Origin: a virus
Direction: 5' to 3' (one strand)
Length of the DNA stretch: 64,000 bases
Virus record (IMG/VR): IMGVR_UViG_3300005573_001166
Coordinates: 95,387 to 159,386 of that record
Part shown: positions 1 to 59,457 of the stretch, piece by piece
How positions within the stretch are numbered: the first letter of the stretch is position 1
Layout: the number at the start of each line of letters is the position of its first letter
Notes under the pieces: model-generated
The model's input: the letters and a program-made list of their open reading frames with translations, nothing else
Databases searched by the model: none
What the model was told of the DNA's origin: nothing
Made by a program: the position numbers and the translations under genes

Positions 1-123
1 TTTCTACCAGCGTTATATGCACTGGTAGAGCTGCGTAAAGTGGAAATATTAAAGGTAAAAAGGCTTCATTTTGGAAGCATGATGATGGAAGGTTTTACTA
101 ATATAATCTGGAGGCCGCTATGA
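1..123 (+). CDS. 3' end of an upstream gene (partial), possibly a methyltransferase of the sugar cluster
   Basis: Frame 1 is open from the window start (FLPALYALVELRKVEILKVKRLHFGSMMMEGFTNIIWRPL*). The stop overlaps the next start (ATGA at 120-123). Function is a weak guess from context. Confidence 0.5.
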   Translation, partial: FLPALYALVELRKVEILKVKRLHFGSMMMEGFTNIIWRPL

Positions 124-893
124 ATCTAGGTTTAAAAGATAAGGTTGCTATAGTAACTGGGGGCAGTCATGGTATAGGTCTAGCTATTGCCCAAGCACTT
201 GCAACAGAAGGCTGTAAAGTGGTAGTATGTTCTAGAGATCCTATCAAACTTAAGGCTGCTTACGAAGCTGCAAGTAAGGCAATTCTTACTATACAAGCAG
301 ACATGACGAAGGATGAGGATATACACAAGTTAGTAGATACTACTATAACTAGTTTTGGAACAGTACATATACTTGTAAACAATGTAGGAGGAGGGGGAAG
401 ATGGGGCAAGGAGGATGTATTAGAGACTCCTTTGCAGGTTTGGCAAGAAGTATACGATAAGAATGTAGGTGCTGCGGTTAAATGTACTTTAGCTGTATTA
501 CCTTATATGGTAAAACAGAAATGGGGTAGGGTAGTAACTGTAACATCTACATTAGGTAAGGAAGGTGGGGGGAGGCCTTGGTTTAATGTAGCTAAGACGG
601 CAGAAACCGCCTTGATGAAAAACTTTGCTTTGAATAAACAATTTGCACGGTGTAATATAACTTTCAACAGTGTTGCCCCTGGCTGTATTATGATTCCTGA
701 TACAGGTTGGGATTTGGAGCAGAAAAGGGATCCGGAGGCATTCAGCAAAATGGTAGATGAGAAATTCCCTTTAGGCAGATTAGGTACTCCGGAAGAGGTT
801 GCATCTGTAGTAGCATTTATATGCTCAGAGCAAGCCAGCTTAGTAAACGGGGCATCTATTTTAGTAGACGGGGGAGAGAGCAGGTGTTTCTAA
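120..893 (+). CDS. Classical short-chain dehydrogenase/reductase (FabG-like fold)
   Basis: TGGSHGIG Rossmann motif, LVNNVG, PLGRLGTPEEVA, VNGASILVDGG. The catalytic YxxxK position reads FNVAK. Confidence 0.9.
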   Translation: MNLGLKDKVAIVTGGSHGIGLAIAQALATEGCKVVVCSRDPIKLKAAYEAASKAILTIQADMTKDEDIHKLVDTTITSFGTVHILVNNVGGGGRWGKEDVLETPLQVWQEVYDKNVGAAVKCTLAVLPYMVKQKWGRVVTVTSTLGKEGGGRPWFNVAKTAETALMKNFALNKQFARCNITFNSVAPGCIMIPDTGWDLEQKRDPEAFSKMVDEKFPLGRLGTPEEVASVVAFICSEQASLVNGASILVDGGESRCF

Positions 894-2181
894 CAGACTG
901 TACTTTGATTATCACAACCTACAACAGACCTAACTATTTAGATTACTACAGTTTATATACTCCTTTGACGTTAATATGCCTATATTAGTTGCAGATGCTA
1001 GTATGTTGGAGATACACAAGCGGAATATTGACTTGCTAAAGAAATACAACGTCAAATATATATATTTGCCTGATGAATTCTTTATGGAGGCTATATCACG
1101 ATCGTTAATGCTAGTTAATAGTAATTTTGTAGCATTTTGCCAGGACGACGATTTTATATTCCCCGATTTTATAGCAAGTGCGGTAGACTTTTTAACAGAC
1201 AATCCTGATTATATAATATGTAATGGAAGGTATGCGATAGGTGGTGAAGGCAGCTAACTTTTACAATCTAACAAAGAAGCTGAGCATGAGGATCCTCTTG
1301 AAAGGTTAACAGATTATATGGGAAGTATGTCCCCTACTTTATTTACTGTGTGACAGACAAAAGGGATTTTAGAGCTACTCCCTTATTTTAATTTGTATCC
1401 TTATTACCACCCACTACAGGAAATAACATGGACTTGTTTTCCTATGTTACTAGGAAAAATGAAGGTAATAGATAGCTTAAGTAGCATACATGTTATACAC
1501 GGCACCAACCTTGCACAGAGGAACCCAAATATGCCGTATTTAGGTAGTTGGGTAGCTAGTGATAAGCTTACAACGGAAATATTATTAACAACAAATGCAA
1601 TAAACAACTTACTACGTACAAACATTCCTCTATATGAGATAAAAAGCGCTTTTATACTGGGACTTTTACGATATTTCTCTAGTTTCGCTTTTATATTCAA
1701 ACCAGTTCTCCCGCCCCCTTTAATCAGGTACGGCGAATCTATACCAAGGTATGCTCCTTTTGTAAAAGAGTTTATTAAAAGTTTATGTCCTATAGAAAGG
1801 ACAGATAGTTTTGACTCAGGAATTTATTTCAGTACAGCTTTCATTACGTCAACAGGGGTAGAGCCTAACCAAGAGTATGTCTCTCAGAGGGCTAAACAGA
1901 TAGAATCGAGTAAGGAAAGGTTAAAGTGTCGGCAAGAGGTATTTGATGGCAACCTTTCAGAAAAGCTATATACTTTCAAGTATATAGAAGCTGAAAGTAA
2001 GGGATTTACGGATACAACTCTTTTAGAATTATTGTTTGCACAAGAGTTCTTTCACAGTATAGAGGGGTGCTATATACCGGATTTCGAACCTGCTGCACTG
2101 TTGTATAAAAGAGCAAATTTACCCCACCCTCAACTTTCACATGCTTTATCGTTAATATCCAGGTATTCAAAAGCTATTTAA
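884..2181 (+). pseudogene. Disrupted GT2 glycosyltransferase, paralog of 2199..3512
   Basis: GTG at 884 gives MFLTDCTLIITTYNRPNYL, then a frameshift near 940. In-frame TAA (1255-1257) and TGA (1351-1353, opposite Trp in the paralog) follow. ORFs 976..1257 and 1393..2181 share a frame and align colinearly with 2199..3512. Confidence 0.85.
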
Positions 2182-2198
2182 ACTTTGGAGGCGAAGAG

Positions 2199-3512
2199 AT
2201 GTCTTTAAAAGACTGTACCTTAGTAATACTAACATACAATAGGCCTAACTTTCTAAACAGGCTACTGCAGTTTTTACACTCATACGGTATAGATATTCCC
2301 ATACTTGTTGCAGATGCTAGTAATCAGAAGATACACCGTCGAAATATAGAGTTACTGCAAAAATACCCCAACACTGACTGTATCTATATACCAGATAGGC
2401 AACCTATAGATTCTACCGTTTTAGCTGCATCTGTATGTAGCAGTTCTTATATAGCGTTTTGCCATGACGACGATTTTACATTTCCAGATTTTCTAACAGA
2501 GGCAATAGATTTTCTAAAAAGAAACCCTGATTATGTTTTATGTACTGGGCGGTACGGTATATACGATGGAGAGATGACGATACAATCTAACACAAGCTGC
2601 GAGTTAGACGATCCTTTAGAGAGATTGTCTTTTTACCTTTCTAATATGTCTCTTACCCTATTCTCTGTATGGCGCAAGGAAGCAGTTTTAAAACTATCAG
2701 CATACAGTGCATTATATCCTTATTTTCACTATATGCAAGAGATAGTATATACTAGTTTTTGTGTGCTGTTAGGAAAAATAAAGGTATTAGATAAACTTTC
2801 TGTAGTTAGGGTACACCATAGTACCAACCTAGGAAAGAAGGTTCCGGGTTCTTATTGTATAGGAAATGAGATAGTCAACGGCTTCGATGCAGATACAGCA
2901 CTAGCGGTAAAAGCAATAAAGGAGATTCTACCTAATAAGTCTGAGCAGGAGATACGTACTGCATTTATCAGCGGGCTTCTGAAACATTTCTCCAGTTTTG
3001 CTTTTCTACATCTACCTCACTTCCGAAGTAAATTATCAGATTACAATGTTGTTGATATAGATAGCTACTCCCCTCTTATACAAGAGTTTGTATCTGAGAT
3101 ATGCCCCGTATCTAAAACTACCCCCTTTAGCATGGGGGAGTATTTTGAGAAAGTATTTAAAGCTAAATCAGAAGTACAGATTAACTATCAGCCTTATTTG
3201 CTTGAAAGAGAAAGGCAGATGGAATTAAACAAACCTCGACTTGAATATTGGAAGCAAGCCTTCCTTAGTGACCTGCATAAAAGGTTACACAACTTCAAAT
3301 TTATAGAAGTAGAGGAGAAGGGGTTTACAGACACTGAGTTAATAGACCTTTTATTTTTGAGAGAATTTTTTTGTAGTATAGAAGGTTGTTATATACCAGA
3401 GTTTGAACCTGCCTGCATAATATGTAAGAAGATAGGACTTGAGAGTTCAGAAGTAAGGGAGACTTTAGAGTGTTTGAAGTCTTTAGTTGACCGATATCCT
3501 ATAGGAGTTTAA
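2199..3512 (+). CDS. GT2-family glycosyltransferase (TIGR00180-like)
   Basis: VILTYNRP, ILVADAS, FCHDDDF (DxD) and DPLERL motifs. Confidence 0.8.
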   Translation: MSLKDCTLVILTYNRPNFLNRLLQFLHSYGIDIPILVADASNQKIHRRNIELLQKYPNTDCIYIPDRQPIDSTVLAASVCSSSYIAFCHDDDFTFPDFLTEAIDFLKRNPDYVLCTGRYGIYDGEMTIQSNTSCELDDPLERLSFYLSNMSLTLFSVWRKEAVLKLSAYSALYPYFHYMQEIVYTSFCVLLGKIKVLDKLSVVRVHHSTNLGKKVPGSYCIGNEIVNGFDADTALAVKAIKEILPNKSEQEIRTAFISGLLKHFSSFAFLHLPHFRSKLSDYNVVDIDSYSPLIQEFVSEICPVSKTTPFSMGEYFEKVFKAKSEVQINYQPYLLERERQMELNKPRLEYWKQAFLSDLHKRLHNFKFIEVEEKGFTDTELIDLLFLREFFCSIEGCYIPEFEPACIICKKIGLESSEVRETLECLKSLVDRYPIGV

Positions 3513-3516: not shown

Positions 3517-4245
3517 ATGATATCTATCGTTTCTTCCACAGCTAGACCGTTACTATGGTTAGATTTTTACAAGCATCTAGGTACGAATAAAGTAGATTTT
3601 GAGGTGATTTTTGTAGGCCCCAATGAGCCGGATTTCCAACTACCTTCAAATATGCGTTTTATAAAATCACCTGTAAAACCGGCTCAGTGTGTCGAAATAG
3701 GTACTAGAGCTGCAAATGGAGACTATTTACTGGTAACAGCAGACGATCTATTTTTCCAAGATCCTCATCCCTTAGATACCTTATTAGAGGACTTCCTAAG
3801 CTATGAAAATGATAAATTGATGCTTTCTTCTGGATATGCTTGGTACTCACCGACAGCACCGGAAGGTTATGTTAAACTGGGACCAGACTTTCACAAAAGT
3901 CCTGAAATAGATGGTAAGCATTATATACTCCCTGTAGGGTTTACGATAAGAAGGGATTACTATAGATATCTGGGAGGTGTAGATAGAAGGTTTATTGCTT
4001 TATATTGGGATTTAGATTTATGCTATAGAGTAATAAGGGACGGAGGTATTACAGCCTTAAGTAGAGTTACGGCAGTAGAAGTTGTAGTTGCGGGTGTTCT
4101 ATGCTTGGAGTATCAGGGTATAGATATGAATCAAACACTTCACGGTTTATGGGGGGATGACTTTATAAGAAAATCTCCGGTAGAGCCTTTTGATGATTAT
4201 AACATATTAACAGAGTCTCAAGGGCCGAAAGGAAGATGGGTATGA
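3517..4245 (+). CDS. GT-A fold (GT2-like) glycosyltransferase, copy 1
   Basis: ISIVSST.RP, FEVIFVGP, ANGDYLLVTADD, GGVDRRF...WDLDLCYR. Confidence 0.75.
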   Translation: MISIVSSTARPLLWLDFYKHLGTNKVDFEVIFVGPNEPDFQLPSNMRFIKSPVKPAQCVEIGTRAANGDYLLVTADDLFFQDPHPLDTLLEDFLSYENDKLMLSSGYAWYSPTAPEGYVKLGPDFHKSPEIDGKHYILPVGFTIRRDYYRYLGGVDRRFIALYWDLDLCYRVIRDGGITALSRVTAVEVVVAGVLCLEYQGIDMNQTLHGLWGDDFIRKSPVEPFDDYNILTESQGPKGRWV

Positions 4246-5225
4246 AGAAGATAGCCGAATTCTTTAAAGGTAAAAACATTCTTATAACAGGGGGTACAGG
4301 TATGATAGGTAGGGCGATTATAAGACAACTATATCAAATCCCCTGTACCCTTGTAAGTGTTTCACTGGACGATATAACCCTTCCTGGAGTAACTTGTATA
4401 AAAGGGGATTTGGCAGACTTTAACTTCTGTAAGGAGATAACAAAAGGAATAGATTATTGCTTTCACGTTGCCGGTATAAAAGGATCGGCTAGTGTAACAA
4501 CTACCAAACCTGCCAGTTTTTTTGTCCCTCTGCTCCAGATGAATACTAATATTCTAGAAGCTTGTAGACTTAACAACGTAGAAAAAATAGTATATACTAG
4601 TTCCATAGGAGCTTATAGTAGCAAAGATGTATTTAAAGAGACAACCGACATCGAGACGGATCTACCCATGGACGTGTATCCTGGATTTGCTAAGAGAATG
4701 GCAGAGTTACAGATAAGAGCGTATAACATACAATACAAGCTGTCCAACTTTGCAATAGTTCGTTTATGTAGTGTATATGGGCCGGGAGATAGTTTTGACC
4801 CTAACTCGGCAATGGTGATACCTGCCCTCATATATAGAGTATACCACAAGGTAGAAGATCCTGTTGTTATATGGGGAGACGGATCTGCTATAAGGGATTT
4901 CGCTTACTGCGATGATATAGCGGTTGGTATAATAAAAGCATTGCATTTTGGAACTAAGTCGAGATATTACAACTTGGGTTCGGGCAAAGGGGTTAGTATT
5001 AAACAATTAGTAGAAACTTTGAGGAAGATAGTTGATTTTAATTATGTTTTTGACACTTCCGTACAGGTGGGTTATTCTAAAAGGGTTATGGACATCACAT
5101 TAGCTAGAAAGTATTTAGACTACAAACCTACTACATCTCTGGAAGCGGGTTTAAAGAAAACATATGATTGGTTTTCTCTCAATGCTAAAGCTTATAAACT
5201 AAAAAAGAACTATTTCCAAGAGTAG
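4236..5225 (+). CDS. NAD-dependent epimerase/reductase, GDP-L-fucose synthase (Fcl)-like extended SDR
   Basis: TGGTGMIG, VYGPGDSF, VIPALI, WGDGSAIRDFAY, YNLGSG. Likely start is ATG 4242. Confidence 0.85.
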   Translation: MGMKKIAEFFKGKNILITGGTGMIGRAIIRQLYQIPCTLVSVSLDDITLPGVTCIKGDLADFNFCKEITKGIDYCFHVAGIKGSASVTTTKPASFFVPLLQMNTNILEACRLNNVEKIVYTSSIGAYSSKDVFKETTDIETDLPMDVYPGFAKRMAELQIRAYNIQYKLSNFAIVRLCSVYGPGDSFDPNSAMVIPALIYRVYHKVEDPVVIWGDGSAIRDFAYCDDIAVGIIKALHFGTKSRYYNLGSGKGVSIKQLVETLRKIVDFNYVFDTSVQVGYSKRVMDITLARKYLDYKPTTSLEAGLKKTYDWFSLNAKAYKLKKNYFQE

Positions 5226-5446: not shown

Positions 5447-6175
5447 ATGATATCTATCGTTTCTTCCACAGTTAGACCGTCACTATGGTTAGATTTTTAC
5501 AAACATTTAGGCACGAATAAAGTAGATTTTGAGGTGATTTTTGTAGGCCCCAATGAGCCGGATTTCCAATTACCTTCAAATATGTATTTTATAAAATCAC
5601 CTGTAAAACCGGTTCAGTGTGTCGAGATAGGTACTAGAGCTGCAAATGGAGACTATCTACTGGTAACAGCAGACGATCTATTTTTCCAAGATCCTCATCC
5701 TCTAGATACCTTATTAGAGGACTTCCTAAGCTATGAAAATGATAAATTGATGCTTTCTTGTAGGTACGCTAGGTACTCACCAACAGGGACGGGAGCTATT
5801 GAGAAACTGGGACCAGACTTTCACAAAAGTCCTGAAATAGATGGTAAGTATTATATACTCCCTATAGGGTTTATGATAAGAAGGGATTACTATAGATATC
5901 TGGGAGGTGTAGATAGAAGGTTTATTGCTTTATATTGGGAGTTAGATTTATGTTATAGAGTAATAAAGGATGGAGGTATTACAGCCTTAAGTAGAGTTAC
6001 TGCATTAGAAGTTGTAACGGTGAGCGTTCTATGCAGAGAGTATCAGGGTATAGATAGGGATCAAACACTTCACGGTTTATGGGGGGATGACTTTATAAGA
6101 AAATCTCCGGTAGAGCCTTTTGATGATTATAACATATTAACAGAGTCTCAAGGGCCGAAAGGAAGATGGGTTTAG
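5447..6175 (+). CDS. GT-A fold (GT2-like) glycosyltransferase, copy 2
   Basis: Same length (242 aa) and near-identical sequence to 3517..4245. Confidence 0.75.
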   Translation: MISIVSSTVRPSLWLDFYKHLGTNKVDFEVIFVGPNEPDFQLPSNMYFIKSPVKPVQCVEIGTRAANGDYLLVTADDLFFQDPHPLDTLLEDFLSYENDKLMLSCRYARYSPTGTGAIEKLGPDFHKSPEIDGKYYILPIGFMIRRDYYRYLGGVDRRFIALYWELDLCYRVIKDGGITALSRVTALEVVTVSVLCREYQGIDRDQTLHGLWGDDFIRKSPVEPFDDYNILTESQGPKGRWV

Positions 6176-6199
6176 ATTTAATAGTTAGGAGGTAATATA

Positions 6200-7312
6200 A
6201 TGCTAGTAAACATAGACAGAGACGGAGTTATAAATCATAATAATAGGTCTATCTCAGGAGGACCTTATTATGTACTCAGTCTCAAACAGTTTGAGTGGAT
6301 ACCTGGAAGTAAAGAAGCTATAGTAAGGCTGCAAAAAGCAGGTTTTACTATACACATAGTAACTAGTCAAAAATGTATAACTAAAAACTTAACTACTATT
6401 GAGGATATTGATAAAATACACGATTACATGATGCAAAGTATTATAGAAGAGGGGGGTAAAGACATAGATGTATCTGTGGTAGTCTCCGAGGATGTTGCTA
6501 CTTCAAAAGCAGAAGCTATTATGGATCACCCGGAATACAAGGCAGGGGATATTTGTTGGATGATAGGAGATTCCAAGGAAGATATAATAGCAGGTAAGTT
6601 GGCAGGATGCCGGACTATATTTATAGTCCCAGAGAACGTACCTGATTCTGAGAGGCATTTAAACCTTGCAGATTACTATGCAGACAGTTTGTTAGCTGCT
6701 ACTTCTATAGTGTTAAAAGAAAGTACTCCTACTGAAAACATCGATATTCAAGACCTCATATGCAAGGCTTGTCTGGAACATATAGGGGTAATTAACCTTA
6801 TACTAGATGGAGGTACATCCGATATAGTGAAACTGTGCTGTTTAGCTGCATCTGTAATAAAAGCAGGAGGTAAGATAATACTGTTCGGTAATGGGGGGTC
6901 TGCAGCAGATGCACAACATATAGCAGCAGAGTTTGTAAACGTATTAGAAAAACACAATAAAAGACCTGCGCTTAATGCAATTGCCCTTACTACCAACACC
7001 TCTATTATTACTTCTATAGCTAACGACTTTAGTTACAATGATATCTTTAGTAGGCAAATAGAGGCTATAGGCGTAAAAGGAGATTTAGCTATAGGTATAA
7101 GTACTAGCGGAACATCTGAAAACGTGATTAGGGGGTTATTAAAAGCCAAGGAGATGGGTTTGTATACTACCATTTTAACAGGCGATAGTAAAACAGTAAG
7201 CACGGACTTAGCAGTATGTGTTTCTTCTAAAAATACTCCTAGAATACAAGAAGCGCATGTTTTAATAGGCCATATTCTTTGTTCTGTTATAGAAAAGATG
7301 GGGGTGTGTTGA
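6200..7312 (+). CDS. gmhA: Fusion of GmhB-like heptose-bisphosphate phosphatase (HAD) and GmhA sedoheptulose-7-phosphate isomerase (SIS)
   Basis: N-terminal DRDGVIN and MIGDSKEDIIAG. C-terminal GNGGSAADAQHIAAEF, ANDFSY..IFSRQI, GISTSGTSENV, TPRIQEAH. Confidence 0.92.
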   Translation: MLVNIDRDGVINHNNRSISGGPYYVLSLKQFEWIPGSKEAIVRLQKAGFTIHIVTSQKCITKNLTTIEDIDKIHDYMMQSIIEEGGKDIDVSVVVSEDVATSKAEAIMDHPEYKAGDICWMIGDSKEDIIAGKLAGCRTIFIVPENVPDSERHLNLADYYADSLLAATSIVLKESTPTENIDIQDLICKACLEHIGVINLILDGGTSDIVKLCCLAASVIKAGGKIILFGNGGSAADAQHIAAEFVNVLEKHNKRPALNAIALTTNTSIITSIANDFSYNDIFSRQIEAIGVKGDLAIGISTSGTSENVIRGLLKAKEMGLYTTILTGDSKTVSTDLAVCVSSKNTPRIQEAHVLIGHILCSVIEKMGVC

Positions 7313-8253
7313 TGTTTAAAGATAAACGTATTTTGGTAACCGGTGGAAGGACTGGTTTTCTGGGTGTTAATTTTACAAGGGAATTGCTTAAGAGGGGGGC
7401 CTTTGTATACGCTACTTCGCTTTCGTCAAAGAAAAATAGTTTACTAGAACCTTGTCCAAACTTAGTAGAGTATATATCTGACTTGAGATACGATAAAATA
7501 CCTGAAGGTATAGATTACATTATTCATTGTGCTGCTCATACTGCAGGTGCCAAAGAGATTGTAGGCAATCCTGCTATTCAAGTGACTCCCAACATTCAAA
7601 TGAATGCCAACTTACTTCATAATGCTGCAGAAAGCGGAGTAGAGAAATTTGTATTTATAAGCAGCACTGCCATCTACCCCGAGACAGATAAGCCTGTAGT
7701 AGAGAGCATGGGATTTGAAAGAGATCCTGCTAACGTATATTTTGGAGTAGGTTGGATGAAGAGATGCACAGAAAAGTTAGCGGAGTTCTTTTACAGGCAT
7801 TACGGCATGCAAGTTCTTATTATTAGACCTTCTAACGTCTACGGTCCTTACTGTAGTTTCGATTTAGATAGGTCGCATGTTATACCTGCATTAATTAAAA
7901 AGTTTATGGAGCAGAATTCTGTAACTGTTTGGGGATTACCTACTGTAGGAAGGGATTTCATATATGTAGATGACTTAGTTACAGGTACTTTACTTGCCTT
8001 AGAGGAGCTTTCAGGATTTGAGGTATACAACCTAGCTTCAGGCAAGATATGTACTATACAGGAACTGGTAGATTTACTTGTAAAACTAACAGGTTTTAAG
8101 GGACAGATAACATACGATGACTCTAAACCTATGACTATTTTCAAGAGAGAAATAAATACAGATAAAGTATACCTTAGATTGGGCTTTAAAGCTGATACTC
8201 CCTTAGAAGAGGGACTAAAACGTACTATAGCTTGGTACAAGGAGCAACTATGA
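7312..8253 (+). CDS. NAD-dependent epimerase/reductase, Fcl-like extended SDR
   Basis: VTGGRTGFLG, RPSNVYGP, SHVIPALI, RDFIYVDD. ATG 7312 overlaps the gmh stop (the ORF track starts at 7279). Confidence 0.85.
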   Translation: MFKDKRILVTGGRTGFLGVNFTRELLKRGAFVYATSLSSKKNSLLEPCPNLVEYISDLRYDKIPEGIDYIIHCAAHTAGAKEIVGNPAIQVTPNIQMNANLLHNAAESGVEKFVFISSTAIYPETDKPVVESMGFERDPANVYFGVGWMKRCTEKLAEFFYRHYGMQVLIIRPSNVYGPYCSFDLDRSHVIPALIKKFMEQNSVTVWGLPTVGRDFIYVDDLVTGTLLALEELSGFEVYNLASGKICTIQELVDLLVKLTGFKGQITYDDSKPMTIFKREINTDKVYLRLGFKADTPLEEGLKRTIAWYKEQL

Positions 8254-8762
8254 AGATACATAAAACGCCTTTAGCCAAGGTCCTTTTAATAGAGCCTCCT
8301 ACCATTTTCGAAGATTTCAGGGGTACTTATGTAGAATTATACAACGAGTTTCTTTATCAAGAATTGGGTGTAAAGTTTATACAAGATGATATCTCTACTT
8401 CATACAAAAACGTACTTAGGGGGATACATGGAGATGCTACTACCTACAAATTAGTGTCCTGTTTATTGGGGAGCTTTTATTTGGTGGTCGTAAACAACGA
8501 TCCAGAATCTCCTGAGTATAGAAAATGGACCTCTTTTACCCTTAGCGACCACAATCATTTACAGGTATTTATACCTCCTAAGTTCGGGAACGGTCATTTA
8601 GTTCTGACGGAAAAAGCTATCTTTCATTATAAGCAATCTACTTACTATGACAGAAGTTCCCAATTTACAATAGCTTGGAATGATCCTAGTTTAAATATTT
8701 ATTGGCCTACAACTGCACCTATACTCTCTGTTAGAGATAGTTGCGTAAAGATGGAGACATAA
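8250..8762 (+). CDS. rmlC: RmlC-type NDP-4-keto-sugar 3,5-epimerase (cupin)
   Basis: FEDFRG, FIQDDIS.S.KNVLRGIH, IPPKFGNGH, IAWNDPSLNI.WP...LS.RD. Confidence 0.9.
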   Translation: MKIHKTPLAKVLLIEPPTIFEDFRGTYVELYNEFLYQELGVKFIQDDISTSYKNVLRGIHGDATTYKLVSCLLGSFYLVVVNNDPESPEYRKWTSFTLSDHNHLQVFIPPKFGNGHLVLTEKAIFHYKQSTYYDRSSQFTIAWNDPSLNIYWPTTAPILSVRDSCVKMET

Positions 8763-8995: not shown

Positions 8996-10330
8996 GTGTT
9001 AAGAGAGTTGATAGAAAAGTTTATTGTGGGTAGCCTATACAGTACCTACCTATATAAACCTGGAAAGCTTGAAGATCTGAAAAAACTAACAGATAACTTA
9101 GTTAAAATAGAAAAGGAGAGAGAGGTACTATATACCAAACTAGTATTAGAGAGGGAGCAGCTACTCGCTTTATTTAACAGTATAAATGAGCCTTTGCATG
9201 TCTCTAATTTAGAAACAAATGAAATACTTTTTGCCAATGATAGTTTTAAAAGTTTGATAGGTATTGATCCTATAGGTAAGAAATGTTATGAATTGATTTG
9301 CAACAACCCTTGTAACAAGCAAGTAAGGAACGTGTTTTATAGCGAAAAATTTAACAAATGGTTTAAATGTGTAAATAAGGTTATAGACTGGCCACAAGAG
9401 TCGGATAGTATTAAAGCAATGTTTGAACTGCTTATAGATATAACAGATGCTCATACATTACAGTTACAACTGGCGGAAAGGGAAGCAAAATTCAAGTCGT
9501 TAGTATCATTATTAGGTGATTACGTGTGGCAGATAGATGAAAAGGGTTATTTTAACTATGTAAGTGGTAATTCAAACGACATTTGGGGATACTGTCCTGC
9601 AGAGATAACAGGTAGGCATATAGAAGACTTTTTGCAGGATACTCATAGAGATAGAAGCTTTTCAGAACTTTTAAAAACGTATGAGCCTATAAAAGAGTAT
9701 AAAGGTATTGGAGCGCGTAAGGACGGCTCTGTTACAATAGTAGAAACTAGTGCCGTTCCTATTTACGATACTTCAGGTGTATTTAAAGGGTATTTGGGAG
9801 TAGATAAGGATATAACAGAAAAAGAGCAACTGAAGAAGGCTATTGAGACACTGCACGATCTAGCATGGCGTATAAATAGAACGAACTCGCTTCATGAAGC
9901 TTTAACATATGCAGTAGATAGCGCTCAAGAGTTATTGAAAGCAGATATAGGAGAGTATTACCTTATAGACAAGGATACGGATACTTTAAACTTAATATAT
10001 TGTAGGGGAGCTACAGATGATGAAGTAACTAATACTCGTAGTTATAGTACAGGTAATATTAAACATTCTATTGTAAAACAAGGGAAGCTTGTATATATTG
10101 CAGATACAGACCACGTTTTAGATACATACATGCGTACTTTAGTAATTGTTCCAATTAACAATGGGGATATAGTTGGTTGTTTCTGTTTGGGCTACAGAGA
10201 ACCCCGAAACGTGCCTTCCTATCTACTACAGACTTTAGAGAGTTTAGGCAAGCTACTTAGTATAGTAATAAACCGACTCCATAAGGAGACCGATAGCGAT
10301 TATAAATGTTTAGGAGGCAGTGAATGTTAG
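8996..10330 (+). CDS. PAS-PAS(PAC)-GAF sensory protein with no output domain
   Basis: EILFAN..F..LIG.DPIGKKCYE; EAKFKSLV...DYVWQID..G.F.YVS.....WGY.P.EITGR; RKDGS...VETSAVPIYD..G.FKGYLGVDKDITE. A GAF-like C-terminus follows and the protein ends with no kinase or GGDEF domain. Confidence 0.85.
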   Translation: MLRELIEKFIVGSLYSTYLYKPGKLEDLKKLTDNLVKIEKEREVLYTKLVLEREQLLALFNSINEPLHVSNLETNEILFANDSFKSLIGIDPIGKKCYELICNNPCNKQVRNVFYSEKFNKWFKCVNKVIDWPQESDSIKAMFELLIDITDAHTLQLQLAEREAKFKSLVSLLGDYVWQIDEKGYFNYVSGNSNDIWGYCPAEITGRHIEDFLQDTHRDRSFSELLKTYEPIKEYKGIGARKDGSVTIVETSAVPIYDTSGVFKGYLGVDKDITEKEQLKKAIETLHDLAWRINRTNSLHEALTYAVDSAQELLKADIGEYYLIDKDTDTLNLIYCRGATDDEVTNTRSYSTGNIKHSIVKQGKLVYIADTDHVLDTYMRTLVIVPINNGDIVGCFCLGYREPRNVPSYLLQTLESLGKLLSIVINRLHKETDSDYKCLGGSEC

Positions 10331-10731: not shown

Positions 10732-11757
10732 GTGAGTGTTGCTTTTATGGGGCCTTGGATAGGTGAATTCGGATGGGAATTGTTAACATGGCAAGGTTTT
10801 TGTAGAGCTAAATCGGCATCATATGACAAAACATATGTATGCAGTTTTCCGGAAACAGAATACTTATATAAAGACTTTGCTACCTTTATTGCACATAACC
10901 ATCCTAGAAGAGTGTTAGATTGGCAGGATATTAGTAAGGTAGAGTATACTATCCCTGAAGATGTAACAGATCATATTACGCCGTTTAAACGTTATAGAGT
11001 ACCAGAACAGAAGTTTATAAAGTTTGGAAGCTCTCCTATACATGAATTTGATTATCTAATACATGCAAGAGGTACAAACAAGAACCCAAGTAAAAACTAC
11101 CCTAAAGACTACTGGCAGGTTATAGTAAATGGACTGGAAGGCAAAGGAGCTTGTATAGGGACTACTTCTGATATGTTTATAGAAGGTACTACAGACTTAA
11201 GAGGTATTCCTTTAGAGCAGTTGACTAATTATATTGCAGGTAGTAAGGTTGTAATAGGTCCCAGTTCCGGTGTGATGCATTTAGCAACTCTGTGTGGTAC
11301 TCCTATTATAGTTTGGGGGGATAAAGCTACGTACTTTGGGGAGACGTTGGAACAGAGATATAAAGTTACCTGGAATCCTTTTAATACTACTGTAGAGTTT
11401 CTATTTGACGATTTTTGGAAGCCAGAGCCTTTTCTTGTAGTTAAGAAAGTATACAACTTGCTAGGTACTCCTTCTATCTCAAAACCTAAAGCTGCTGTAG
11501 TTCCTTTAAAAGCTCCAGATGTAGAGGTAACTATTAAAGTAGGGGAAGGTACTGCTAAACTTTTACAAGATGCAATGTCATCTGGTAGGTGGTTTTTATC
11601 TGTAACATACGTCTCTCAAGATAAGACTTTACAGCAAGGATGGGAAACTCGTAACTTTCCCATCGGCGACTTAATTCCTAGTATTGAACATCTTAAGTTA
11701 GATATGGCAGAAAAACAAATAAACCCAACTAAACTAAACCCTAAAGAGTGGAGGTAG
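10732..11757 (+). CDS. GT9 (heptosyltransferase family) glycosyltransferase with a small extra C-terminal domain
   Basis: KNYPKDYW, DLRGIPLEQLTNYIAGSKVVIGPSSGVMHLATLCGTPIIVWG. Confidence 0.75.
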   Translation: MSVAFMGPWIGEFGWELLTWQGFCRAKSASYDKTYVCSFPETEYLYKDFATFIAHNHPRRVLDWQDISKVEYTIPEDVTDHITPFKRYRVPEQKFIKFGSSPIHEFDYLIHARGTNKNPSKNYPKDYWQVIVNGLEGKGACIGTTSDMFIEGTTDLRGIPLEQLTNYIAGSKVVIGPSSGVMHLATLCGTPIIVWGDKATYFGETLEQRYKVTWNPFNTTVEFLFDDFWKPEPFLVVKKVYNLLGTPSISKPKAAVVPLKAPDVEVTIKVGEGTAKLLQDAMSSGRWFLSVTYVSQDKTLQQGWETRNFPIGDLIPSIEHLKLDMAEKQINPTKLNPKEWR

Positions 11758-11759
11758 GC

Positions 11760-13988: not shown

Positions 13989-14000
13989 TTTAACATACCC

Positions 14001-14110
14001 AAAATCGCCTCTAAAACCCCCTATAAGCCTCTTTTATAAATTTTATATGTAATTACTACTAAAAAATTAAAAAGGCCTTTATAGGGGGGAATAGGCCTTT
14101 TTAAGGGAGG
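14001..14110. repeat. Dispersed palindromic intergenic element, copy A
   Basis: GGCCTTTATAGGGGGGAATAGGCC at 14074-14097. 14031-14056 is the exact reverse complement of 62139-62164. Confidence 0.8.
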
Positions 14111-14116
14111 TTTAGA

Positions 14117-15124
14117 ATGATATTTAGATTAATTGGGAAGGCAGATAGATATAAAACAGATTTTGGGGGTCAAAAAGCATTAATAGACATACTTAACGGT
14201 ATGCATAATGCGGGGTATCAGACAGAGTGGGTTTCTTATTTCGGCAACTTTATAACTAACGAATTGTTTAGGGCAAGTATTCCTAATACAAAGGTACTTA
14301 CAACAGTGCAAGAGATGTTACAGCCTTGTGATATTTTTATGTTGTTTGTAGGTTCTCAGGCTAAATCTTTTGGTAAGGAGGCTTGCAAGGTATTTAATGA
14401 TATACCTAAAGGGGCTAAAAAAGTTATCAGCTTGAATACTGTTTTGGGGCAGGTTGCTGATTACACAACTGAGGAGGGTAGAGCTGCTGCATGGGCTAGA
14501 GAGTTTGATCTTTATATATTTGAGAATACGGCTTACATGAAAAAGTTTCTTTCTGTAGTTCCTAATAGGAAAGCTATAGTACTACATCCTTGTGTAGATA
14601 TATCTCCTTTTTTGAAAATCTCTCCTACCTTCCAAGAGCCAATACATGTAGTAAGGTTAGTGTCTAGACCTAAAACAAAAATCCCTAGAAACACTAACGA
14701 TTTAATACTAAAGATTAGAGAATACCAACCTAACTGTATTTTTAGCTTTATGGAGTACACTGACTATATAATGGATGCCCCTTATATATATAAATACCAT
14801 AGAGACCAAATACCTCCTCCAGAATTTTTGGCCAGAGGTAATTGTTTCTGGCATCCGTTACCTCCAGGGGTGGGGGAACCAGGTCCCAGAGTTATTGTAG
14901 AGGCTATGGCAGCAGGGCTACCTGTAATTGCTAACGGAGGAGATGGTCCTAAAGACAGGGTAACGCCTGAAACAGGTTGGCATGTAAACTCCTTAGACGA
15001 GATACCTGAAATCTTTAAAGGGTTAACTGTTGCAGAGTTAGAGAGAAAAGGGAAAGCGGCTAGGGAACGGGCTATTAGCGAATTCGGAGTTACTCCTTGG
15101 GTAAATGCAATTATTAATGAGTAG
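14117..15124 (+). CDS. GT4 glycosyltransferase, paralog of the C-terminal half of 11760..13988
   Basis: EPGPRVIVEAMAAGLPVIA..DGPKDRVTPETGW matches PRVIIEAMAIGLPVIA..DGAKDRVTPETGW. Confidence 0.85.
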   Translation: MIFRLIGKADRYKTDFGGQKALIDILNGMHNAGYQTEWVSYFGNFITNELFRASIPNTKVLTTVQEMLQPCDIFMLFVGSQAKSFGKEACKVFNDIPKGAKKVISLNTVLGQVADYTTEEGRAAAWAREFDLYIFENTAYMKKFLSVVPNRKAIVLHPCVDISPFLKISPTFQEPIHVVRLVSRPKTKIPRNTNDLILKIREYQPNCIFSFMEYTDYIMDAPYIYKYHRDQIPPPEFLARGNCFWHPLPPGVGEPGPRVIVEAMAAGLPVIANGGDGPKDRVTPETGWHVNSLDEIPEIFKGLTVAELERKGKAARERAISEFGVTPWVNAIINE

Positions 15125-15135
15125 GAGAAAGGAAT

Positions 15136-20115: not shown

Positions 20116-20117
20116 AG

Positions 20118-20260
20118 AAAAACGGCCTATTCCCCCCTATAAAGGCCTTATTACGAATTTGTAGGTAAATATATACCCACCTACAAGAAAGTAAGTTATA
20201 GGGGGGAATAGGTGGGTTATAGGGGGGATTAAAAGACAACCCCTCCCCGTTTTAAGGTTA
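20118..20260. repeat. Dispersed palindromic intergenic element, copy B
   Basis: GGCCTATTCCCCCCTATAAAGGCC at 20124-20147 is the reverse complement of the copy A/C motif and pairs with TTATAGGGGGGAATAGG at 20196-20212. Confidence 0.8.
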
Positions 20261-54557: not shown

Positions 54558-57380
54558 ATGCTCGCTTTAAGTGTTGTAGGTACTATCAGGGGTTCTAGTA
54601 ACTATCTTTCTGGCGCTTATGGACTTACTGTGCAAGAAATAGGTGGTAGAGAGTATGTTTTAGTTACTGGCTTTTCTTGTAATAGTCTTGCTATTATAGA
54701 TGTTTCCAATCCCTCTGCTCCCACCTTGTCTGGCTATATATTGGGTTCATCTGGTTATATACCAGGTAGCGGTTCTCCTATGTATTTAGAGAACCCTGTT
54801 AGTGTAAAATGTTTTACATCTGGTTCTAATGTTTATGCAGTTGTTACATCTTATACAAACGGTAGGCTTACTATAGTAGATGTCTCTGATCCTACAGATC
54901 CAAGTATTGTAAGTAGTATTACTAGCCCCGATCCTCCGAATTATTTAGACGGGGCGTATGGATTAGCTATACAGGAAATAGGTGGTACAAGGTATTGTTT
55001 TGTAACTTCTGTTTTAAACGACTCTTTTGCTATTTTTAACATACAAGATCCAGAATCGCCTACTGTTGTTTCTTACGTAGAAGGAGAGGGCAGCCCTAAT
55101 TATTTAGGGGGAGCGCATGATATAGCTGTAACTCAAATCTCTGGTACTTGGTATGTATTTGTAATTTCTCAGAGAGACAACAGTTTATCTGTATTTAACA
55201 TAAACAATATTAATTCCCCTTCTTTAGTTACTGTCGTTAGAGGCAGCGGAAGTCCTAATTATTTAGGAGGAGCGCACACCCTTTCTATTTCAGGTAACTT
55301 TTTATACATTACAGCAAGTGCAGACAATAGTTTATCTATATTTAACATAAGCAATCCTAGCTCCCCTAGTAGGGTAGGCGGGGCACGTGGAATTGGGTAT
55401 CCTAACTATTTATATGGCGTTTTTGGTAATACTGTGGCGACTTGGGATAAAAAGTATGTTATAACTGCAGGTTTTATAGAAGATACTTTAACGGTTTTTG
55501 ATGCATCTACTCCGAGTAACATTCAAGCATCTACTTATATAGCAGGAGGTGGATATCCTTTTTATTTAGGGGGAGTTCACTCAGTTACTACCAGCGGAGG
55601 ATATGTATACTGCACCTCTTATGAGGATGATGCTTTAGTTATTCTCGGGACTACTATATTTAGCTCTTCTTCTAGCAGTAGTTCCTCAACAAGTTCTTCA
55701 AGCAGTAGTTCTAGTAGTAGTAGTTCTTCTACAAGCTTTAGTTCTAGCTCCAGTTCTTCCAGCAGTTCCTCAACAAGCTTTAGTTCTAGTTCCAGCAGCA
55801 GTTCCTCAACAAGCTTTAGTTCCAGTTCCAGCAGCAGTTCCTCAACAAGCTTTAGTTCTAGTTCCAGCAGCAGTTCCTCAACAAGCTTTAGTTCTAGTTC
55901 CAGCAGCAGTTCTTCTACAAGCTTTAGTTCTAGTAGCAGCAGTAGTTCTTCTTCTAGTAGTTCTTATAGTTTCACACCGTCAGAGAATACCGTGTATATA
56001 GCAGACACATATAATTATAGGGTACAAAAGTTTGATGAGTTTGGGAATTTCTTATTAGAGTGGGGAGAATACGGAATAGGTAACGGGCAGTTTAATAGGC
56101 CTTTAGGGATTGCAGTCGATTATGATGGTTATGTTTATGTTGCAGATACTTATAATAATAGGATGCAAAAGTTTGATAGTGACGGTAACTTTATCCTAAA
56201 ATGGGGTACAGGTGGTACAGATGATGGACAGTTTAATTTACCTAGAGGAGTTGCTGTTGATAGGGATAATAATGTCTATGTATGTGATGTAGGCAATTAT
56301 AGGGTACAAAAGTTTTCTAATACGGGTACCTTCCTGATGAAATTCGGTAGTTTTGGTACAGATAATGGTCAATTTCAATTGCCTGTAGGTATCGTAGTAG
56401 AGTATTATTCAGGTAATATATTCGTTGCAGATGGTGTAAATTGTAATATACAAGTATTCGATGATCAAGGTAATTATTTATATAAGTGGGGATCTATAGG
56501 AGATGGAGTAGGTCAGTTTAGAAGTATAAACGGTATACACATGAATATACATGGTGAAGTTTATGTATGTGATTACGGCATGCATGACATGATCCAAGTA
56601 TTCGATTTGCAAGGTAATTTTATACGAAGATGGGGTTCAGGTGGTACAGGTAATGGACAGTTTGCTTCCGTCTTTGATGTTACTGTAGATAATGACGGTA
56701 GAGTTTATACCGTTGAAGTAGGTAATAATAGGGTTCAAAAATTTGATCTTGTAGGTAATTTCTTGCGTAAGTGGGGAGCTTTCGGTAGTGATCCAGGATA
56801 TTTTAAATACCCCTTTGCGATTGATGTATATCCTACAAGACCTGGTTCTTCTGCATCTAGCTCTAGTTCCTCTAGTTCATCCTCTAGTAGCTCTAGTTCC
56901 TCTAGTTCCAGTTCCTCTAGTTCATCCTCTAGTAGATATCCAGGATATGTATATGTAGTAGATATGGAAAACCATAGAGTACAAGTTTTCGGTTTGGGGG
57001 GCGATTTTATCTTTCAGTGGGGCACTTTCGGAATTGGGAATGGACAGTTTAAGTTTCCTACAGATCTTGCTATTGATTCTCAGGGATATGTGTATGTATG
57101 TGATACAGGTAATGATAGAATACAGAAATTTGACGGAGACGGAAACTTTATCCTAAAATGGGGGTCAGAAGGGTTGAATACAGGTCAATTTAATGGGCCT
57201 ACAGGTATTAGCATAGATGCTGAAGATTATGTATATGTAGTAGATACTTTTGGCCATAGAGTACAGGTTTTTGACTCTAATGGTAACTTTATCAGGCAAT
57301 GGGGAGATCCAGGTACTGCAGGTAAAGGCAAGTATCTATTTAACGCTCCCGATGGAGTTTTTGCTAGACGTAAGAAGTAG
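54558..57380 (+). CDS. LVIVD propeller - poly-Ser stalk - NHL propeller protein
   Basis: Repeats LAIIDVSNPSAPT / LTIVDVSDPTDP / YLGGAH; Ser tract of about 105 aa; nine NHL repeats split by a second Ser tract. Confidence 0.88.
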   Translation: MLALSVVGTIRGSSNYLSGAYGLTVQEIGGREYVLVTGFSCNSLAIIDVSNPSAPTLSGYILGSSGYIPGSGSPMYLENPVSVKCFTSGSNVYAVVTSYTNGRLTIVDVSDPTDPSIVSSITSPDPPNYLDGAYGLAIQEIGGTRYCFVTSVLNDSFAIFNIQDPESPTVVSYVEGEGSPNYLGGAHDIAVTQISGTWYVFVISQRDNSLSVFNINNINSPSLVTVVRGSGSPNYLGGAHTLSISGNFLYITASADNSLSIFNISNPSSPSRVGGARGIGYPNYLYGVFGNTVATWDKKYVITAGFIEDTLTVFDASTPSNIQASTYIAGGGYPFYLGGVHSVTTSGGYVYCTSYEDDALVILGTTIFSSSSSSSSSTSSSSSSSSSSSSSTSFSSSSSSSSSSSTSFSSSSSSSSSTSFSSSSSSSSSTSFSSSSSSSSSTSFSSSSSSSSSTSFSSSSSSSSSSSSSYSFTPSENTVYIADTYNYRVQKFDEFGNFLLEWGEYGIGNGQFNRPLGIAVDYDGYVYVADTYNNRMQKFDSDGNFILKWGTGGTDDGQFNLPRGVAVDRDNNVYVCDVGNYRVQKFSNTGTFLMKFGSFGTDNGQFQLPVGIVVEYYSGNIFVADGVNCNIQVFDDQGNYLYKWGSIGDGVGQFRSINGIHMNIHGEVYVCDYGMHDMIQVFDLQGNFIRRWGSGGTGNGQFASVFDVTVDNDGRVYTVEVGNNRVQKFDLVGNFLRKWGAFGSDPGYFKYPFAIDVYPTRPGSSASSSSSSSSSSSSSSSSSSSSSSSSSSRYPGYVYVVDMENHRVQVFGLGGDFIFQWGTFGIGNGQFKFPTDLAIDSQGYVYVCDTGNDRIQKFDGDGNFILKWGSEGLNTGQFNGPTGISIDAEDYVYVVDTFGHRVQVFDSNGNFIRQWGDPGTAGKGKYLFNAPDGVFARRKK

Positions 57381-57824: not shown

Positions 57825-57827
57825 AAA

Positions 57828-58292
57828 ATGCCTGATTTACCGCCTATTACACGTAGACAATATAGTTACACCTTCTACCCTATACCCGATTGGTTCTATT
57901 GGGGCCCTAGAGTTATAGCAAAATATGATCTTAGGTCTGGGGATGTTTCTACTCCGGATAACTCTTGGACCGATTGGGAGGAAGCGACTCATAACAACGT
58001 ATTTGAAGGTACTTTGCATAGATATGTACAACACAGATTTTATGTTTGGATACCTCAAGATGTTAGAGTTAGTAGGCAAGAAGCTGTCCAGTTTATGTAT
58101 AAACATTTTGTTCTTAAGTGGTGGGGTAATAGGTTTAGATACCAGTATACGTTACATTCTACCTATTATATAGTGGGATCTGAAATGTATCAAGGGTATA
58201 CGTACGCCGGGGAAGGATTGTATCAATTTGCAAACTGGAATGCAACTACTCCTACTTTAGGAGACGAGTTGCCTGTTTTTGAAGTAGTATGA
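57828..58292 (+). CDS. Hypothetical baseplate/tail protein
   Basis: RBS AAGGAGG; aromatic-rich, with Y.LRSG...PD.SW..W...RYVQ.R. Confidence 0.5.
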   Translation: MPDLPPITRRQYSYTFYPIPDWFYWGPRVIAKYDLRSGDVSTPDNSWTDWEEATHNNVFEGTLHRYVQHRFYVWIPQDVRVSRQEAVQFMYKHFVLKWWGNRFRYQYTLHSTYYIVGSEMYQGYTYAGEGLYQFANWNATTPTLGDELPVFEVV

Positions 58293-58305
58293 GGAGATTG
58301 CTTTT

Positions 58306-59457
58306 TTGAGGTTAGGTATTGTTTGCAGTATGGTTGGTTTGACCGGTTATGCCGAATTGGGCAGGGAATGTGTTCTAGGTTTGCATAAGTTAGGTGTAGA
58401 TATAGAGCTTAAGGTGTTAGATAAAGATCTTTTAAAATACTCTCTTTTGCCTGAGAACATATTAAAGTTTGTTAAAAAGCATACCGTTAAGAATTTTACT
58501 AAAGGTATACCTGTATTTACTATAGGCCCTCCCACTCAATACGATAGGTCTTCAGGGGGAAAGCAGATAGGTATAGCTTTATGGGAAGCATATGTTTTGC
58601 CTACTTCTTGGTTACTTGTTATGAATTCTGCAGATTTATTGATAACGTTTTCTGATTTTAATAAAGAGTTATTTGTAAGACAAGGGCTGGCTAGGGATAA
58701 AATAGAGGTAGTCCCTCCAGCTGTAGACTGCGTCAAATTTAATCCTAGTATACCCCCTCTTTATATACAAGCAGTAAGACCGTTTACTGTTTTATTTATA
58801 GGCCAGATGATTTTGCGTAAGGGGTATAATAAACTGATAATAGCTGCCTTGAGAACGTTTAAGAAACACGAGGATGTTTGTGTTATTCTTAAGCTTCCTC
58901 CTTCAAGTGCAAGGGACACTGCGCTTATTATGGAAAAACTTCAATTTATAAAAAGGGAAGCTGGTCCTAGCAAAGCTGCTTTGTACTTTAATAACTCTGC
59001 AGTACCGATAGAGAAAATTCCTATGTTATATCAAATTGTTAACAAAAAAGTAATAGATAAGTTGTATCCCTACCTTCCAGGAAGCTTGAGTCCTGCAGGA
59101 GTTTTCTGTTTACCTAGTTTAGGAGAAGGAATAGGTTTACCTTATCTAGAAGCAATGGCCTCTGGTGTATTAACTATAGGAACAAATGTTACAGGAAGTT
59201 ATTTTCTAAATAATAATAACTCTATTTTAATACAAACAGAAGGTGTTAAAAGAAGTGAAGCAGATCAATCTTTGTATGGTAATTCCTTTTTCCCCGGAAT
59301 TAGCAGCTCTGCAGTGTCAGAAGCACTTCTGAAAGCGTATAATATATCTTCTGTAGATAAACAAGCTATTATTAAGCAAGCTAGGTTGGATGCAGAGGGT
59401 TTTACATATGAGAAAACTTGCAAGGCTATTCTTGCTGCAATACAACAACGGATATAA
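58306..59457 (+). CDS. GT4 glycosyltransferase within the tail module
   Basis: TGYA...R, IALWE...P..W, RKGY..LI.A, FCLPSLGEGIGLPYLEAMASG. Confidence 0.9.
   Translation: MRLGIVCSMVGLTGYAELGRECVLGLHKLGVDIELKVLDKDLLKYSLLPENILKFVKKHTVKNFTKGIPVFTIGPPTQYDRSSGGKQIGIALWEAYVLPTSWLLVMNSADLLITFSDFNKELFVRQGLARDKIEVVPPAVDCVKFNPSIPPLYIQAVRPFTVLFIGQMILRKGYNKLIIAALRTFKKHEDVCVILKLPPSSARDTALIMEKLQFIKREAGPSKAALYFNNSAVPIEKIPMLYQIVNKKVIDKLYPYLPGSLSPAGVFCLPSLGEGIGLPYLEAMASGVLTIGTNVTGSYFLNNNNSILIQTEGVKRSEADQSLYGNSFFPGISSSAVSEALLKAYNISSVDKQAIIKQARLDAEGFTYEKTCKAILAAIQQRI

Follow-up and report, generated by a model that had tools for sequence, protein, structure and literature searches.

Glycosyltransferase cassettes and poly-serine virion proteins point to a candidate O-glycosylation system encoded by a myovirus

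The stretch analysed here (64,000 nucleotides, hereafter the window) forms the final 64 kb of the single 159,386 bp virus record IMGVR_UViG_3300005573_001166, positions 95,387 to 159,386. The virus is an uncultured myovirus, and the window carries glycosyltransferase (GT) genes, genes for sugar-nucleotide enzymes and genes for virion proteins with long serine tracts. Read together, these genes suggest that the phage encodes a cytoplasmic O-glycosylation system for the poly-Ser tracts of its own virion proteins, to which we assign a probability of about 60%. We consider this the best reading because a cassette of GT genes found in the window co-occurs with poly-Ser open reading frames (ORFs) in other viral contigs, and because the nearest relative, G002, keeps both.

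To find Ser tracts, every ORF in the whole 159,386 bp genome was scanned for 30-residue segments in which Ser exceeds 60%. Exactly four ORFs were returned, at 16331, 38577, 41149 and 54558, and their starts are precisely those given in an earlier note made on this DNA from the sequence alone. The first of the four lies directly after the core GT cassette (10732–16320), again as the note had described. The cassette and the four Ser-tract genes are as follows (positions are those of the window unless marked as genome positions):

10732–11757, + strand: GT9-like glycosyltransferase, the candidate Ser-directed enzyme (weak Pfam match, confirmed by fold)
11748–13988, + strand: fusion of a GT9 and a GT4 domain (Pfam Glyco_transf_9 and Glycos_transf_1)
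14117–15124, + strand: GT4, a paralogue of the C-terminal half of the 11748 protein (Pfam, tblastn)
15136–16320, + strand: GT8-like GT-A domain (YIYLDSD motif) fused to a Methyltransf_24 O-methyltransferase (Pfam PF13578, E 6e-13)
16331–17674, + strand: right-handed beta-helix protein with a C-terminal Ser tract (approximately residues 393–431) and then a 25-residue helix-like terminal tail (from the translation); the first gene after the cassette
38577–40376, + strand: fibre protein with a BNR-like N-terminal domain, a Ser tract of approximately 130 residues (approximately 170–300) and an NHL propeller; a second tract is at approximately residues 447–460
41149–42909, + strand: poly-Ser (residues 1–125), NHL, 18 Ser (residues 421–438), NHL
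54558–57380, + strand: fibre protein with an LVIVD propeller, a Ser tract of approximately 100 residues (approximately 367–465), a six-blade NHL propeller, 31 Ser (approximately residues 762–792) and a three-blade NHL unit

The GT9-like protein encoded at 10732 has 294 metagenomic homologues, and a tblastn search with it against 50,697 deposited phage records returned no match. When it was used to scan viral contigs, 132 relatives were found, and the 80 loci that were kept were dereplicated to 61 clusters. A GT4 gene resembling 14117 and the C-terminal half of 11748 adjoins the GT9-like gene in 12 of the 61, often accompanied by another GT9, a GT8/methyltransferase similar to 15136 and a short-chain dehydrogenase/reductase (SDR) of the Fcl-like type. 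The GT4 half of the 11748 protein is the conserved partner of the GT9-like gene, its homologues in these loci being 38–52% identical (tblastn). A poly-Ser ORF is present on the same strand, 0.8–3.6 kb away, in 9 of the 12 clusters with the GT9-like/GT4 pair, whereas among the 49 clusters that have the GT9-like gene but no such GT4, only 1 includes a Ser tract, and that one is weak (Fisher p = 1.2e-7, uncorrected for kinship). Of 44 bacterial or archaeal loci that contain a GT9-like homologue, none has the partner GT4 and none has a Ser tract. The link between GTs and poly-Ser virion proteins proposed in the earlier note passes the co-occurrence check that the note itself suggested.

The viral contigs that bear the cassette have only 3–7 proteins in common with this phage, and their GC content is 46–65% compared with 38% here. 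Fibre proteins of the LamG type are among the poly-Ser proteins at their cassette loci, as are a BNR-propeller protein and gpJ-like host-specificity proteins that end in Ser tails. In three siphovirus-sized records with the cassette (G004, G005 and G006), there are two orthologous families of small proteins, 125–150 residues long, with C-terminal Ser tails of 20–40 residues (e.g. L165 136–552 and L169 9103–9519). To the eye, these two families resemble tail-tube and head-decoration proteins. As phmmer searches of the GTs and of both families against solved structures returned nothing useful, these labels come from reading the sequences. If they are right, the families would parallel the C-terminal glycosylation of capsid and tail-tube proteins in mycobacteriophages.

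The nearest relative, G002 (82.7 kb), has 40 proteins in common with this phage, including a major head protein that is 89% identical. Its genes are arranged as head, GT locus, an orthologue of 16331 and tail, and the orthologue is only 44% identical but has its Ser tract at the equivalent C-terminal place. Thus, G002 keeps both the tract and the GT locus, rather than the tracts without the GT cluster, which the earlier note had named as a refuting pattern. G002 includes six poly-Ser ORFs, some of them on proteins whose counterparts here have no tract.

The main Ser tracts are approximately 40–130 residues long and 80–90% Ser, with a periodic SSSSSSSSTSFS unit that is encoded by 36 bp tandem repeats, and hence they are not the pure Ser tracts of the earlier description. 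In the 38577, 41149 and 54558 proteins, the tracts are linkers between folded domains, and the heads comprise NHL propellers of six blades together with an LVIVD propeller and one BNR-like domain. The propeller heads proposed earlier for the Ser-tract proteins are thus found in three of them; the fourth, 16331, is a beta-helix protein, and the nearest structural look-alikes of its beta-helix domain in the Atlas are viral beta-helix proteins. A search with an exact DNA pattern for the SSSSTSFS repeat returned three single, chance-like matches, all without Ser tracts.

The repeats also bring in a different account, in which the tracts are flexible linkers that are unglycosylated or glycosylated by the host, the 36 bp repeats promote recombination and shuffling of receptor-binding heads, and the GTs act elsewhere. 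One 36 bp repeat unit is common to all three fibre genes, and 41149–42909, encoding poly-Ser and NHL, is a duplicate of the 3' part of 54558–57380 (83% DNA identity). Ser tracts have been gained or lost on different proteins between this phage and G002, and a precedent exists in the poly-Ser linkers of bacterial carbohydrate-active enzymes (PMC2699552). However, plain linkers would leave unexplained both the position of the cassette clade beside Ser-tract proteins in unrelated phages and the retention of the Ser tail of 16331 at the same position despite 44% identity. Shuffling and glycosylation are also mutually compatible. We regard linkers without phage-directed glycosylation as improbable.

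The gene at 41149 has an unusual start. An ORF at 40810–41148 (112 residues) stops at a TAA, and 41149 begins at the next codon, a TTG, in the same frame and after a Shine–Dalgarno-like stretch, GGAGAGAG. The gene at 40395 is a homologue of 53497. By analogy with the 53497/54558 arrangement, 40810 and 41149 may formerly have been one gene, and the present configuration may reflect a split gene, a nonsense mutation or a fault in the assembly.

The core cassette is the downstream end of a sugar locus of approximately 30 kb that is flanked by the major head protein gene on one side and the tail genes on the other. The locus begins 0.85 kb after the major head protein gene, ends at the Ser-tailed 16331, and its genes are co-oriented. 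Within the window, the genes upstream of the cassette are:

120–893, + strand: classical SDR (Pfam adh_short_C2, E 2e-47)
880–2181, + strand: broken GT2 paralogue, a pseudogene (one frameshift near 930–975 and in-frame TAA at 1255 and TGA at 1351, from a three-frame reading)
2199–3512, + strand: GT2 glycosyltransferase (Pfam PF00535, E 3e-10)
3517–4245, + strand: predicted 242-residue GT-A-like protein, 90% identical to the 5447–6175 product
4236–5225, + strand: extended SDR, GDP-fucose-synthase-like, a sugar 4-reductase/epimerase (Pfam Epimerase, E 4e-43; best NCBIfam match GDP-L-fucose synthase, below the cutoff)
5447–6175, + strand: second copy of the 242-residue GT-A-like protein, a paralogue of 3517–4245
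6200–7312, + strand: fusion of GmhB (HAD phosphatase) and GmhA (sedoheptulose-7-phosphate isomerase) (Pfam SIS_2 and HAD_2; NCBIfam gmhA E 7e-48, GmhB E 1e-18)
7279–8253, + strand: second extended SDR, GDP-fucose-synthase-like (Pfam, NCBIfam)
8232–8762, + strand: RmlC-type sugar 3,5-epimerase (Pfam dTDP_sugar_isom, E 3e-44; NCBIfam rmlC, E 2e-41)
8996–10330, + strand: PAS-PAS-GAF sensor-type protein without an output domain (Pfam PAS_9, PAS and GAF_2)

The GmhB–GmhA fusion, the RmlC-like epimerase and the three SDRs named in the earlier note were all recovered by Pfam and NCBIfam, but its count of nine intact GT domains was not, as 880–2181 is broken and the 242-residue paralogues at 3517 and 5447 match no Pfam family. 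Of the transferases it listed, one GT2, the GT9, the GT9–GT4 fusion and two further GT4s were found with Pfam (the 10732 enzyme by fold) and one GT2 was lost. For the fusion at 15136, the methyltransferase was found by Pfam and the DxD motif is present, while the GT8-like part is taken from a low-confidence model. The sugar genes in the window are where the note placed them, but the extent that it gave is too short, as the locus reaches approximately 14 kb upstream of the window and a separate GT9-GT4-GT9 group is found at genome 7.2–10.1 kb.

When read through, 880–2181 is 44% identical over approximately 400 residues to the GT2 encoded at 2199–3512, and Pfam Glycos_transf_2 matches the fragment 976–1257. 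On this evidence, it is a pseudogene in this assembly. Recoding of stop codons was considered as a cause of the in-frame stops and rejected, as the stops are mixed (TAA and TGA) and the remaining genome is clean in translation table 11. The 242-residue GT-A-like gene and the Fcl-like SDR gene have been duplicated in tandem (3517–5225 and 5447–8253), and the sugar locus appears from its sequence to evolve by duplication and decay. The presence of the PAS-PAS-GAF protein (8996–10330) in the middle of a sugar locus is unusual for a phage. Scans of the locus for promoters and terminators returned matches at chance level and were uninformative on operon structure.

The part of the locus upstream of the window encodes further transferases, namely two GT4s and a GT4–GT2 fusion, bringing the block to at least 12 GT domains, none with a predicted membrane anchor. 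It also encodes an HddC-like nucleotidyltransferase, a Gmd-like 4,6-dehydratase, an HddA-like GHMP kinase and a NUDIX protein. Thiamine-diphosphate enzymes of three kinds accompany them (L001 10526–18595; genome 86.5–94.6 kb): E1, as an alpha/beta pair, an enzyme like acetolactate synthase, and a split transketolase. The split transketolase could supply sedoheptulose-7-phosphate, and the other thiamine-diphosphate enzymes might build branched sugars.

Together, these genes form a complete heptose set of the guanosine diphosphate (GDP) type. The best NCBIfam matches for HddA (E 4e-38) and HddC (E 3e-36), like those for gmhA and GmhB given above, are below the curated cutoffs, and the heptose enzymes are therefore called '-like' throughout. 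Judged from these matches, the encoded pathway is of the GDP type (GmhA, HddA-like, GmhB, HddC-like) and not of the adenosine diphosphate (ADP) type. It resembles the pathways that make GDP-D-glycero-alpha-D-manno-heptose and its 6-deoxy or epimerised derivatives for capsule, O-antigen and S-layer in its GmhA, HddA, GmhB and HddC types and in its Gmd-like, RmlC-like and two Fcl-like enzymes. It differs from them in being encoded by a phage, in the fusion of GmhB to GmhA, in being joined with thiamine-diphosphate enzymes and a split transketolase, and in similarities that are below the curated cutoffs. The GmhB–GmhA gene is absent from all 10 cassette-bearing records searched (G002 and nine others). 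We conclude that the heptose pathway is an add-on of this phage, and the Ser-linked sugar therefore need not be heptose. The heptose on Ser proposed in the earlier note is doubtful on both counts, the type of the pathway and its absence from the other records.

The sugar genes could instead serve to remodel the host surface (lipopolysaccharide core or O-antigen, capsule or S-layer), either to keep out superinfecting phages or to change the cell as it lyses, with the Ser tracts being flexible spacers that lie near the GTs because both occupy a shared variable structural region. GDP-heptose synthesis combined with 4,6-dehydratase, 3,5-epimerase and 4-reductase activities is how heptose is modified for capsule and O-antigen, and the phage has genes of all these types. 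The nearest folds to the GT9-like enzyme are the lipopolysaccharide heptosyltransferases WaaF and WaaC, and one record, G007, has the cassette but no Ser tract. Phage GTs that alter host serotype are well known (PMC12619734). However, a hydropathy scan of all 156 ORFs in the genome found none with more than two hydrophobic 19-residue segments, so polytopic membrane proteins such as a flippase, polymerase, ligase, oligosaccharyltransferase or ABC permease are absent from the phage, though the host could supply these. On the same scan it has no initiating phosphoglycosyl transferase or transporter for a surface polysaccharide. The cassette clade is tied specifically to poly-Ser virion proteins (9/12 versus 1/49 and 0/44), and the locus is situated within the head-to-tail structural block, as in virion-glycosylating phages. 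Host-surface remodelling thus appears unlikely, though it is the foremost of the alternatives considered.

The fold of the candidate Ser-directed enzyme was compared with those of known protein glycosyltransferases. The model of the GT9-like protein (10732) has a predicted local distance difference test score (pLDDT) of 85, and VIA-align gave Z scores of 17.8 for 3TOV, 16.2–16.8 for WaaF and WaaC and 15.5 for TibC, with other GT-B enzymes at 11.5 or less. TibC and AAH are bacterial autotransporter heptosyltransferases (BAHTs; PMC4358343; PDB 4RAP/4RB4), and the phage protein shares their GT9-type fold (root mean square deviation to TibC 3.2 Å over 215 residues). BAHTs also resemble the phage enzyme in its proposed role: they are soluble, work in the cytoplasm and heavily glycosylate Ser in a protein bound for the outside. 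However, the N-terminal beta-barrel of TibC (residues 1–97), which is required for activity (PMC4358343), is absent from the phage protein, where model residues 1–248 align to TibC 96–391. The four-Cys iron finger of the BAHTs is also absent from the GT9-like family, in which only C188 is invariant among 19 members. Thus, the 10732 protein is a GT9-fold enzyme and not a BAHT. WaaF and WaaC score slightly above TibC, and the donor pathway in the phage is of the GDP type, whereas TibC and AAH, which act on Ser as dodecameric rings, use the ADP type.

The GT8-like domain of the 15136 protein has a conserved DxD motif (alignment A4). In Foldseek, its low-confidence model (pLDDT 59.6) matched LARGE1, UGGT, GlyE and glycogenin with E values of 2e-6 to 1e-4, GlyE being at rank 4; these are GT8/GT24 enzymes that act on proteins, and GlyE belongs to the pneumococcal serine-rich-repeat pathway. 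On the long Ser-rich tracts of the serine-rich-repeat adhesins of Gram-positive cocci, a cytoplasmic GT4 initiator (GtfA/GtfB) acts first and is followed by GT8 enzymes such as GlyE (PDB 5GVW). GT4 domains and a putative GT8-like domain beside Ser tracts may be a point of likeness between the two systems, with the reservation that the GT8-like model is of low confidence. On the other hand, profile searches of the phage GT4 families against solved structures matched only generic GT4 nucleotide-binding regions, with no specific similarity to GtfA/GtfB, and the accessory Sec system is absent from the phage.

The position of the locus recalls the virion glycosylation of mycobacteriophages. Cluster O mycobacteriophages have an O-methyltransferase and GTs inserted in the head module (Corndog gp35–38; PMC4351075), and in Che8, Corndog and Myrna the C-terminal ends of capsid and tail-tube subunits are reported to carry glycans (Freeman et al. 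2023, cited by PMC12363180 and PMC12619734). Here too, GTs and an O-methyltransferase, of the Methyltransf_24 family, are inside the structural gene block, between the major head protein and the tail sheath. In the mycobacteriophages the modification is cytoplasmic and takes place before or during assembly, as it would in this phage. The putative acceptors differ, being extended poly-Ser stretches that serve as linkers or tails in fibre and beta-helix proteins. So does the GT core, which is a GT9-like/GT4 pair supplied by its own sugar-nucleotide pathways in a block of approximately 30 kb; for the GT9-like protein, the search of deposited phage records described above found no counterpart, the other GTs not having been compared. 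Our literature search turned up no publication that connects GTs with poly-Ser proteins of phages.

Glycosylation of the phage DNA, as a protection against host restriction, was a further use to be considered for the GTs. Phage GTs that glycosylate DNA are common (Pyle 2024, as cited in PMC12619734), and one phage GT, 9IQZ, was found at rank 30 of the fold search. However, the GT domains number more than 15 and are joined by a multi-sugar pathway, far beyond what known DNA glycosylation systems contain, the locus is in the structural block rather than among replication genes, and the link with poly-Ser would be left unexplained. We consider hypermodification of the DNA very improbable.

Another GT4 is found in the tail module, as the earlier note had reported, and it lies between fibre genes. 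It and its neighbours are:

57828–58292, + strand: 154-residue protein, directly upstream of the tail-module GT4 in the relatives L003, L004, L008 and L011 (tblastn synteny)
58306–59457, + strand: GT4 between fibre genes (Pfam)
59472–61493, + strand: 673-residue fibre-like protein, the downstream partner of the GT4, 49–53% identical in L005–L008 and without a family match

Approximately 30 orthologues of the 58306 protein, at 37–55% identity, were found before the scores dropped sharply. The order fibre gene, 57828-like gene, GT4 and 59472-like gene is kept in approximately 10 related metagenome contigs, and in L011 and L002 a GT9 gene adjoins the GT4. Five contigs include at least 1.7 kb of upstream sequence, and among these poly-Ser is beside the GT4 in two (L008 and L010), truncated NHL proteins in two, and a fibre protein without a Ser tract in L011. 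The Ser tracts in L008 exceed 300 residues, and its homologue of 38577 has a far longer tract. The 58306 gene therefore appears, from gene order, to be a stable part of the fibre module that is not strictly tied to Ser tracts. LAGLIDADG-type homing-endonuclease-like ORFs flank this GT4 in L003 (376–1692 and 4004–4357) and L004 (91–1224 and 3527–4075).

From the gene content, fold class, gene order and co-occurrence that were observed, a mechanism can be put forward in which all of the chemistry, the nature of the first sugar and what the phage gains are conjectural. The block of approximately 30 kb would supply activated sugars through the GDP-type D-glycero-D-manno-heptose pathway, the 4,6-dehydratase, the RmlC-like epimerase, the two Fcl-like reductases, the three thiamine-diphosphate enzyme sets and the split transketolase. 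One enzyme of the GT9-like/GT4 pair would place the first sugar on the Ser hydroxyls of the tracts, the remaining transferases would lengthen the chain, and the methyltransferase would modify it. The targets would be of two kinds, the Ser tail at the end of the beta-helix protein (16331) and the Ser linkers in the three fibre proteins with NHL propellers, and the GT4 encoded at 58306 probably serves the fibres. The Ser linkers would in this way become stiff, hydrated, protease-resistant glycosylated stalks. The methyl-capped glycan and mucin-like arms envisaged in the earlier note are something that we, too, can only infer.

Several points weigh against glycosylation of the virion proteins by this route. 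The support is all genomic, and either member of the GT9-like/GT4 pair could be the enzyme that initiates on Ser. In a maximum-likelihood tree, all pair-bearing GT9-like sequences, the window's gene and L083 fall into one well-supported clade (100/95). The association with poly-Ser is therefore a single origin retained through deep divergence and not repeated independent gain, and the Fisher p value overstates it. One subclade (L085, L086 and L088) has the cassette without a long Ser tract, and it includes a complete 43 kb record (G007) as well as two fragments. Some orthologues of the tail-module GT4 have no visible Ser tract near them (L011 and L002/L012), and the loss of one GT2 as a pseudogene indicates that part of the sugar locus is dispensable. 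GT9 enzymes and GDP-heptose pathways classically serve lipopolysaccharide, capsule and S-layer glycans, and soluble GTs can also use lipid-linked host intermediates.

The structural genes surrounding these loci include those for a tape-measure-like protein, a cement protein and a pectate-lyase-like spike, all in the window, and the following:

genome 79749–80738, 15.6 kb upstream of the window: major head protein (phrog_2522)
23932–25365, + strand: tail sheath
34897–36357, + strand: baseplate wedge
61510–62040, + strand: Amidase_3 endolysin

Every gene in the window is on the + strand, the GC content is approximately 38% and there are no tRNA genes. A 1.1 kb AT-rich non-coding gap (20116–21204), with a run of 44 T and short tandem repeats, separates the sugar and Ser-tail block from the tail genes and may be a promoter region or an origin. 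The spike gene is cut by the end of the contig (window 63394–63999, with genome 1–60 at the other end). Simple circularity was rejected, as joining the contig ends leads to a stop after eight residues and does not continue the frame; the record is thus incomplete or linear at the spike gene. When 24 kb of the window was used in a megablast search of deposited phages, no match was returned. A single-protein scan with the tail sheath identified no relative, and a search with a baseplate alignment identified only two.

As far as we found in the literature, experimental evidence for glycosylation of phage virions comes from a few mycobacteriophages. If the cassette does glycosylate poly-Ser, sugar-coated fibres, tail tubes and decoration proteins would be widespread in uncultured phages of very different hosts, and poly-Ser runs would be a simple sequence mark for predicting glycosylated virion proteins. 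This would bear on the resistance of phages to proteases and heat, on how they stick to or avoid surfaces, and on immune recognition of therapeutic phages, and it would offer a compact, soluble, cytoplasmic Ser-directed glycosylation kit for glyco-engineering. The phage described here is the extreme case, with the cassette plus a sugar-nucleotide factory of its own. A bolder and more tentative proposal, for which we judge the chances to be somewhat short of even, is that it makes proteoglycan-like fibres wholly from its own genes, with unusual activated sugars (modified heptoses, possibly branched) polymerized on poly-Ser scaffolds by an undescribed, phage-specific GT9-like/GT4 O-glycosylation family. 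If so, no other glycoprotein pathway known to be encoded by a bacteriophage would be as complete, and this one would bear comparison with those of giant viruses.

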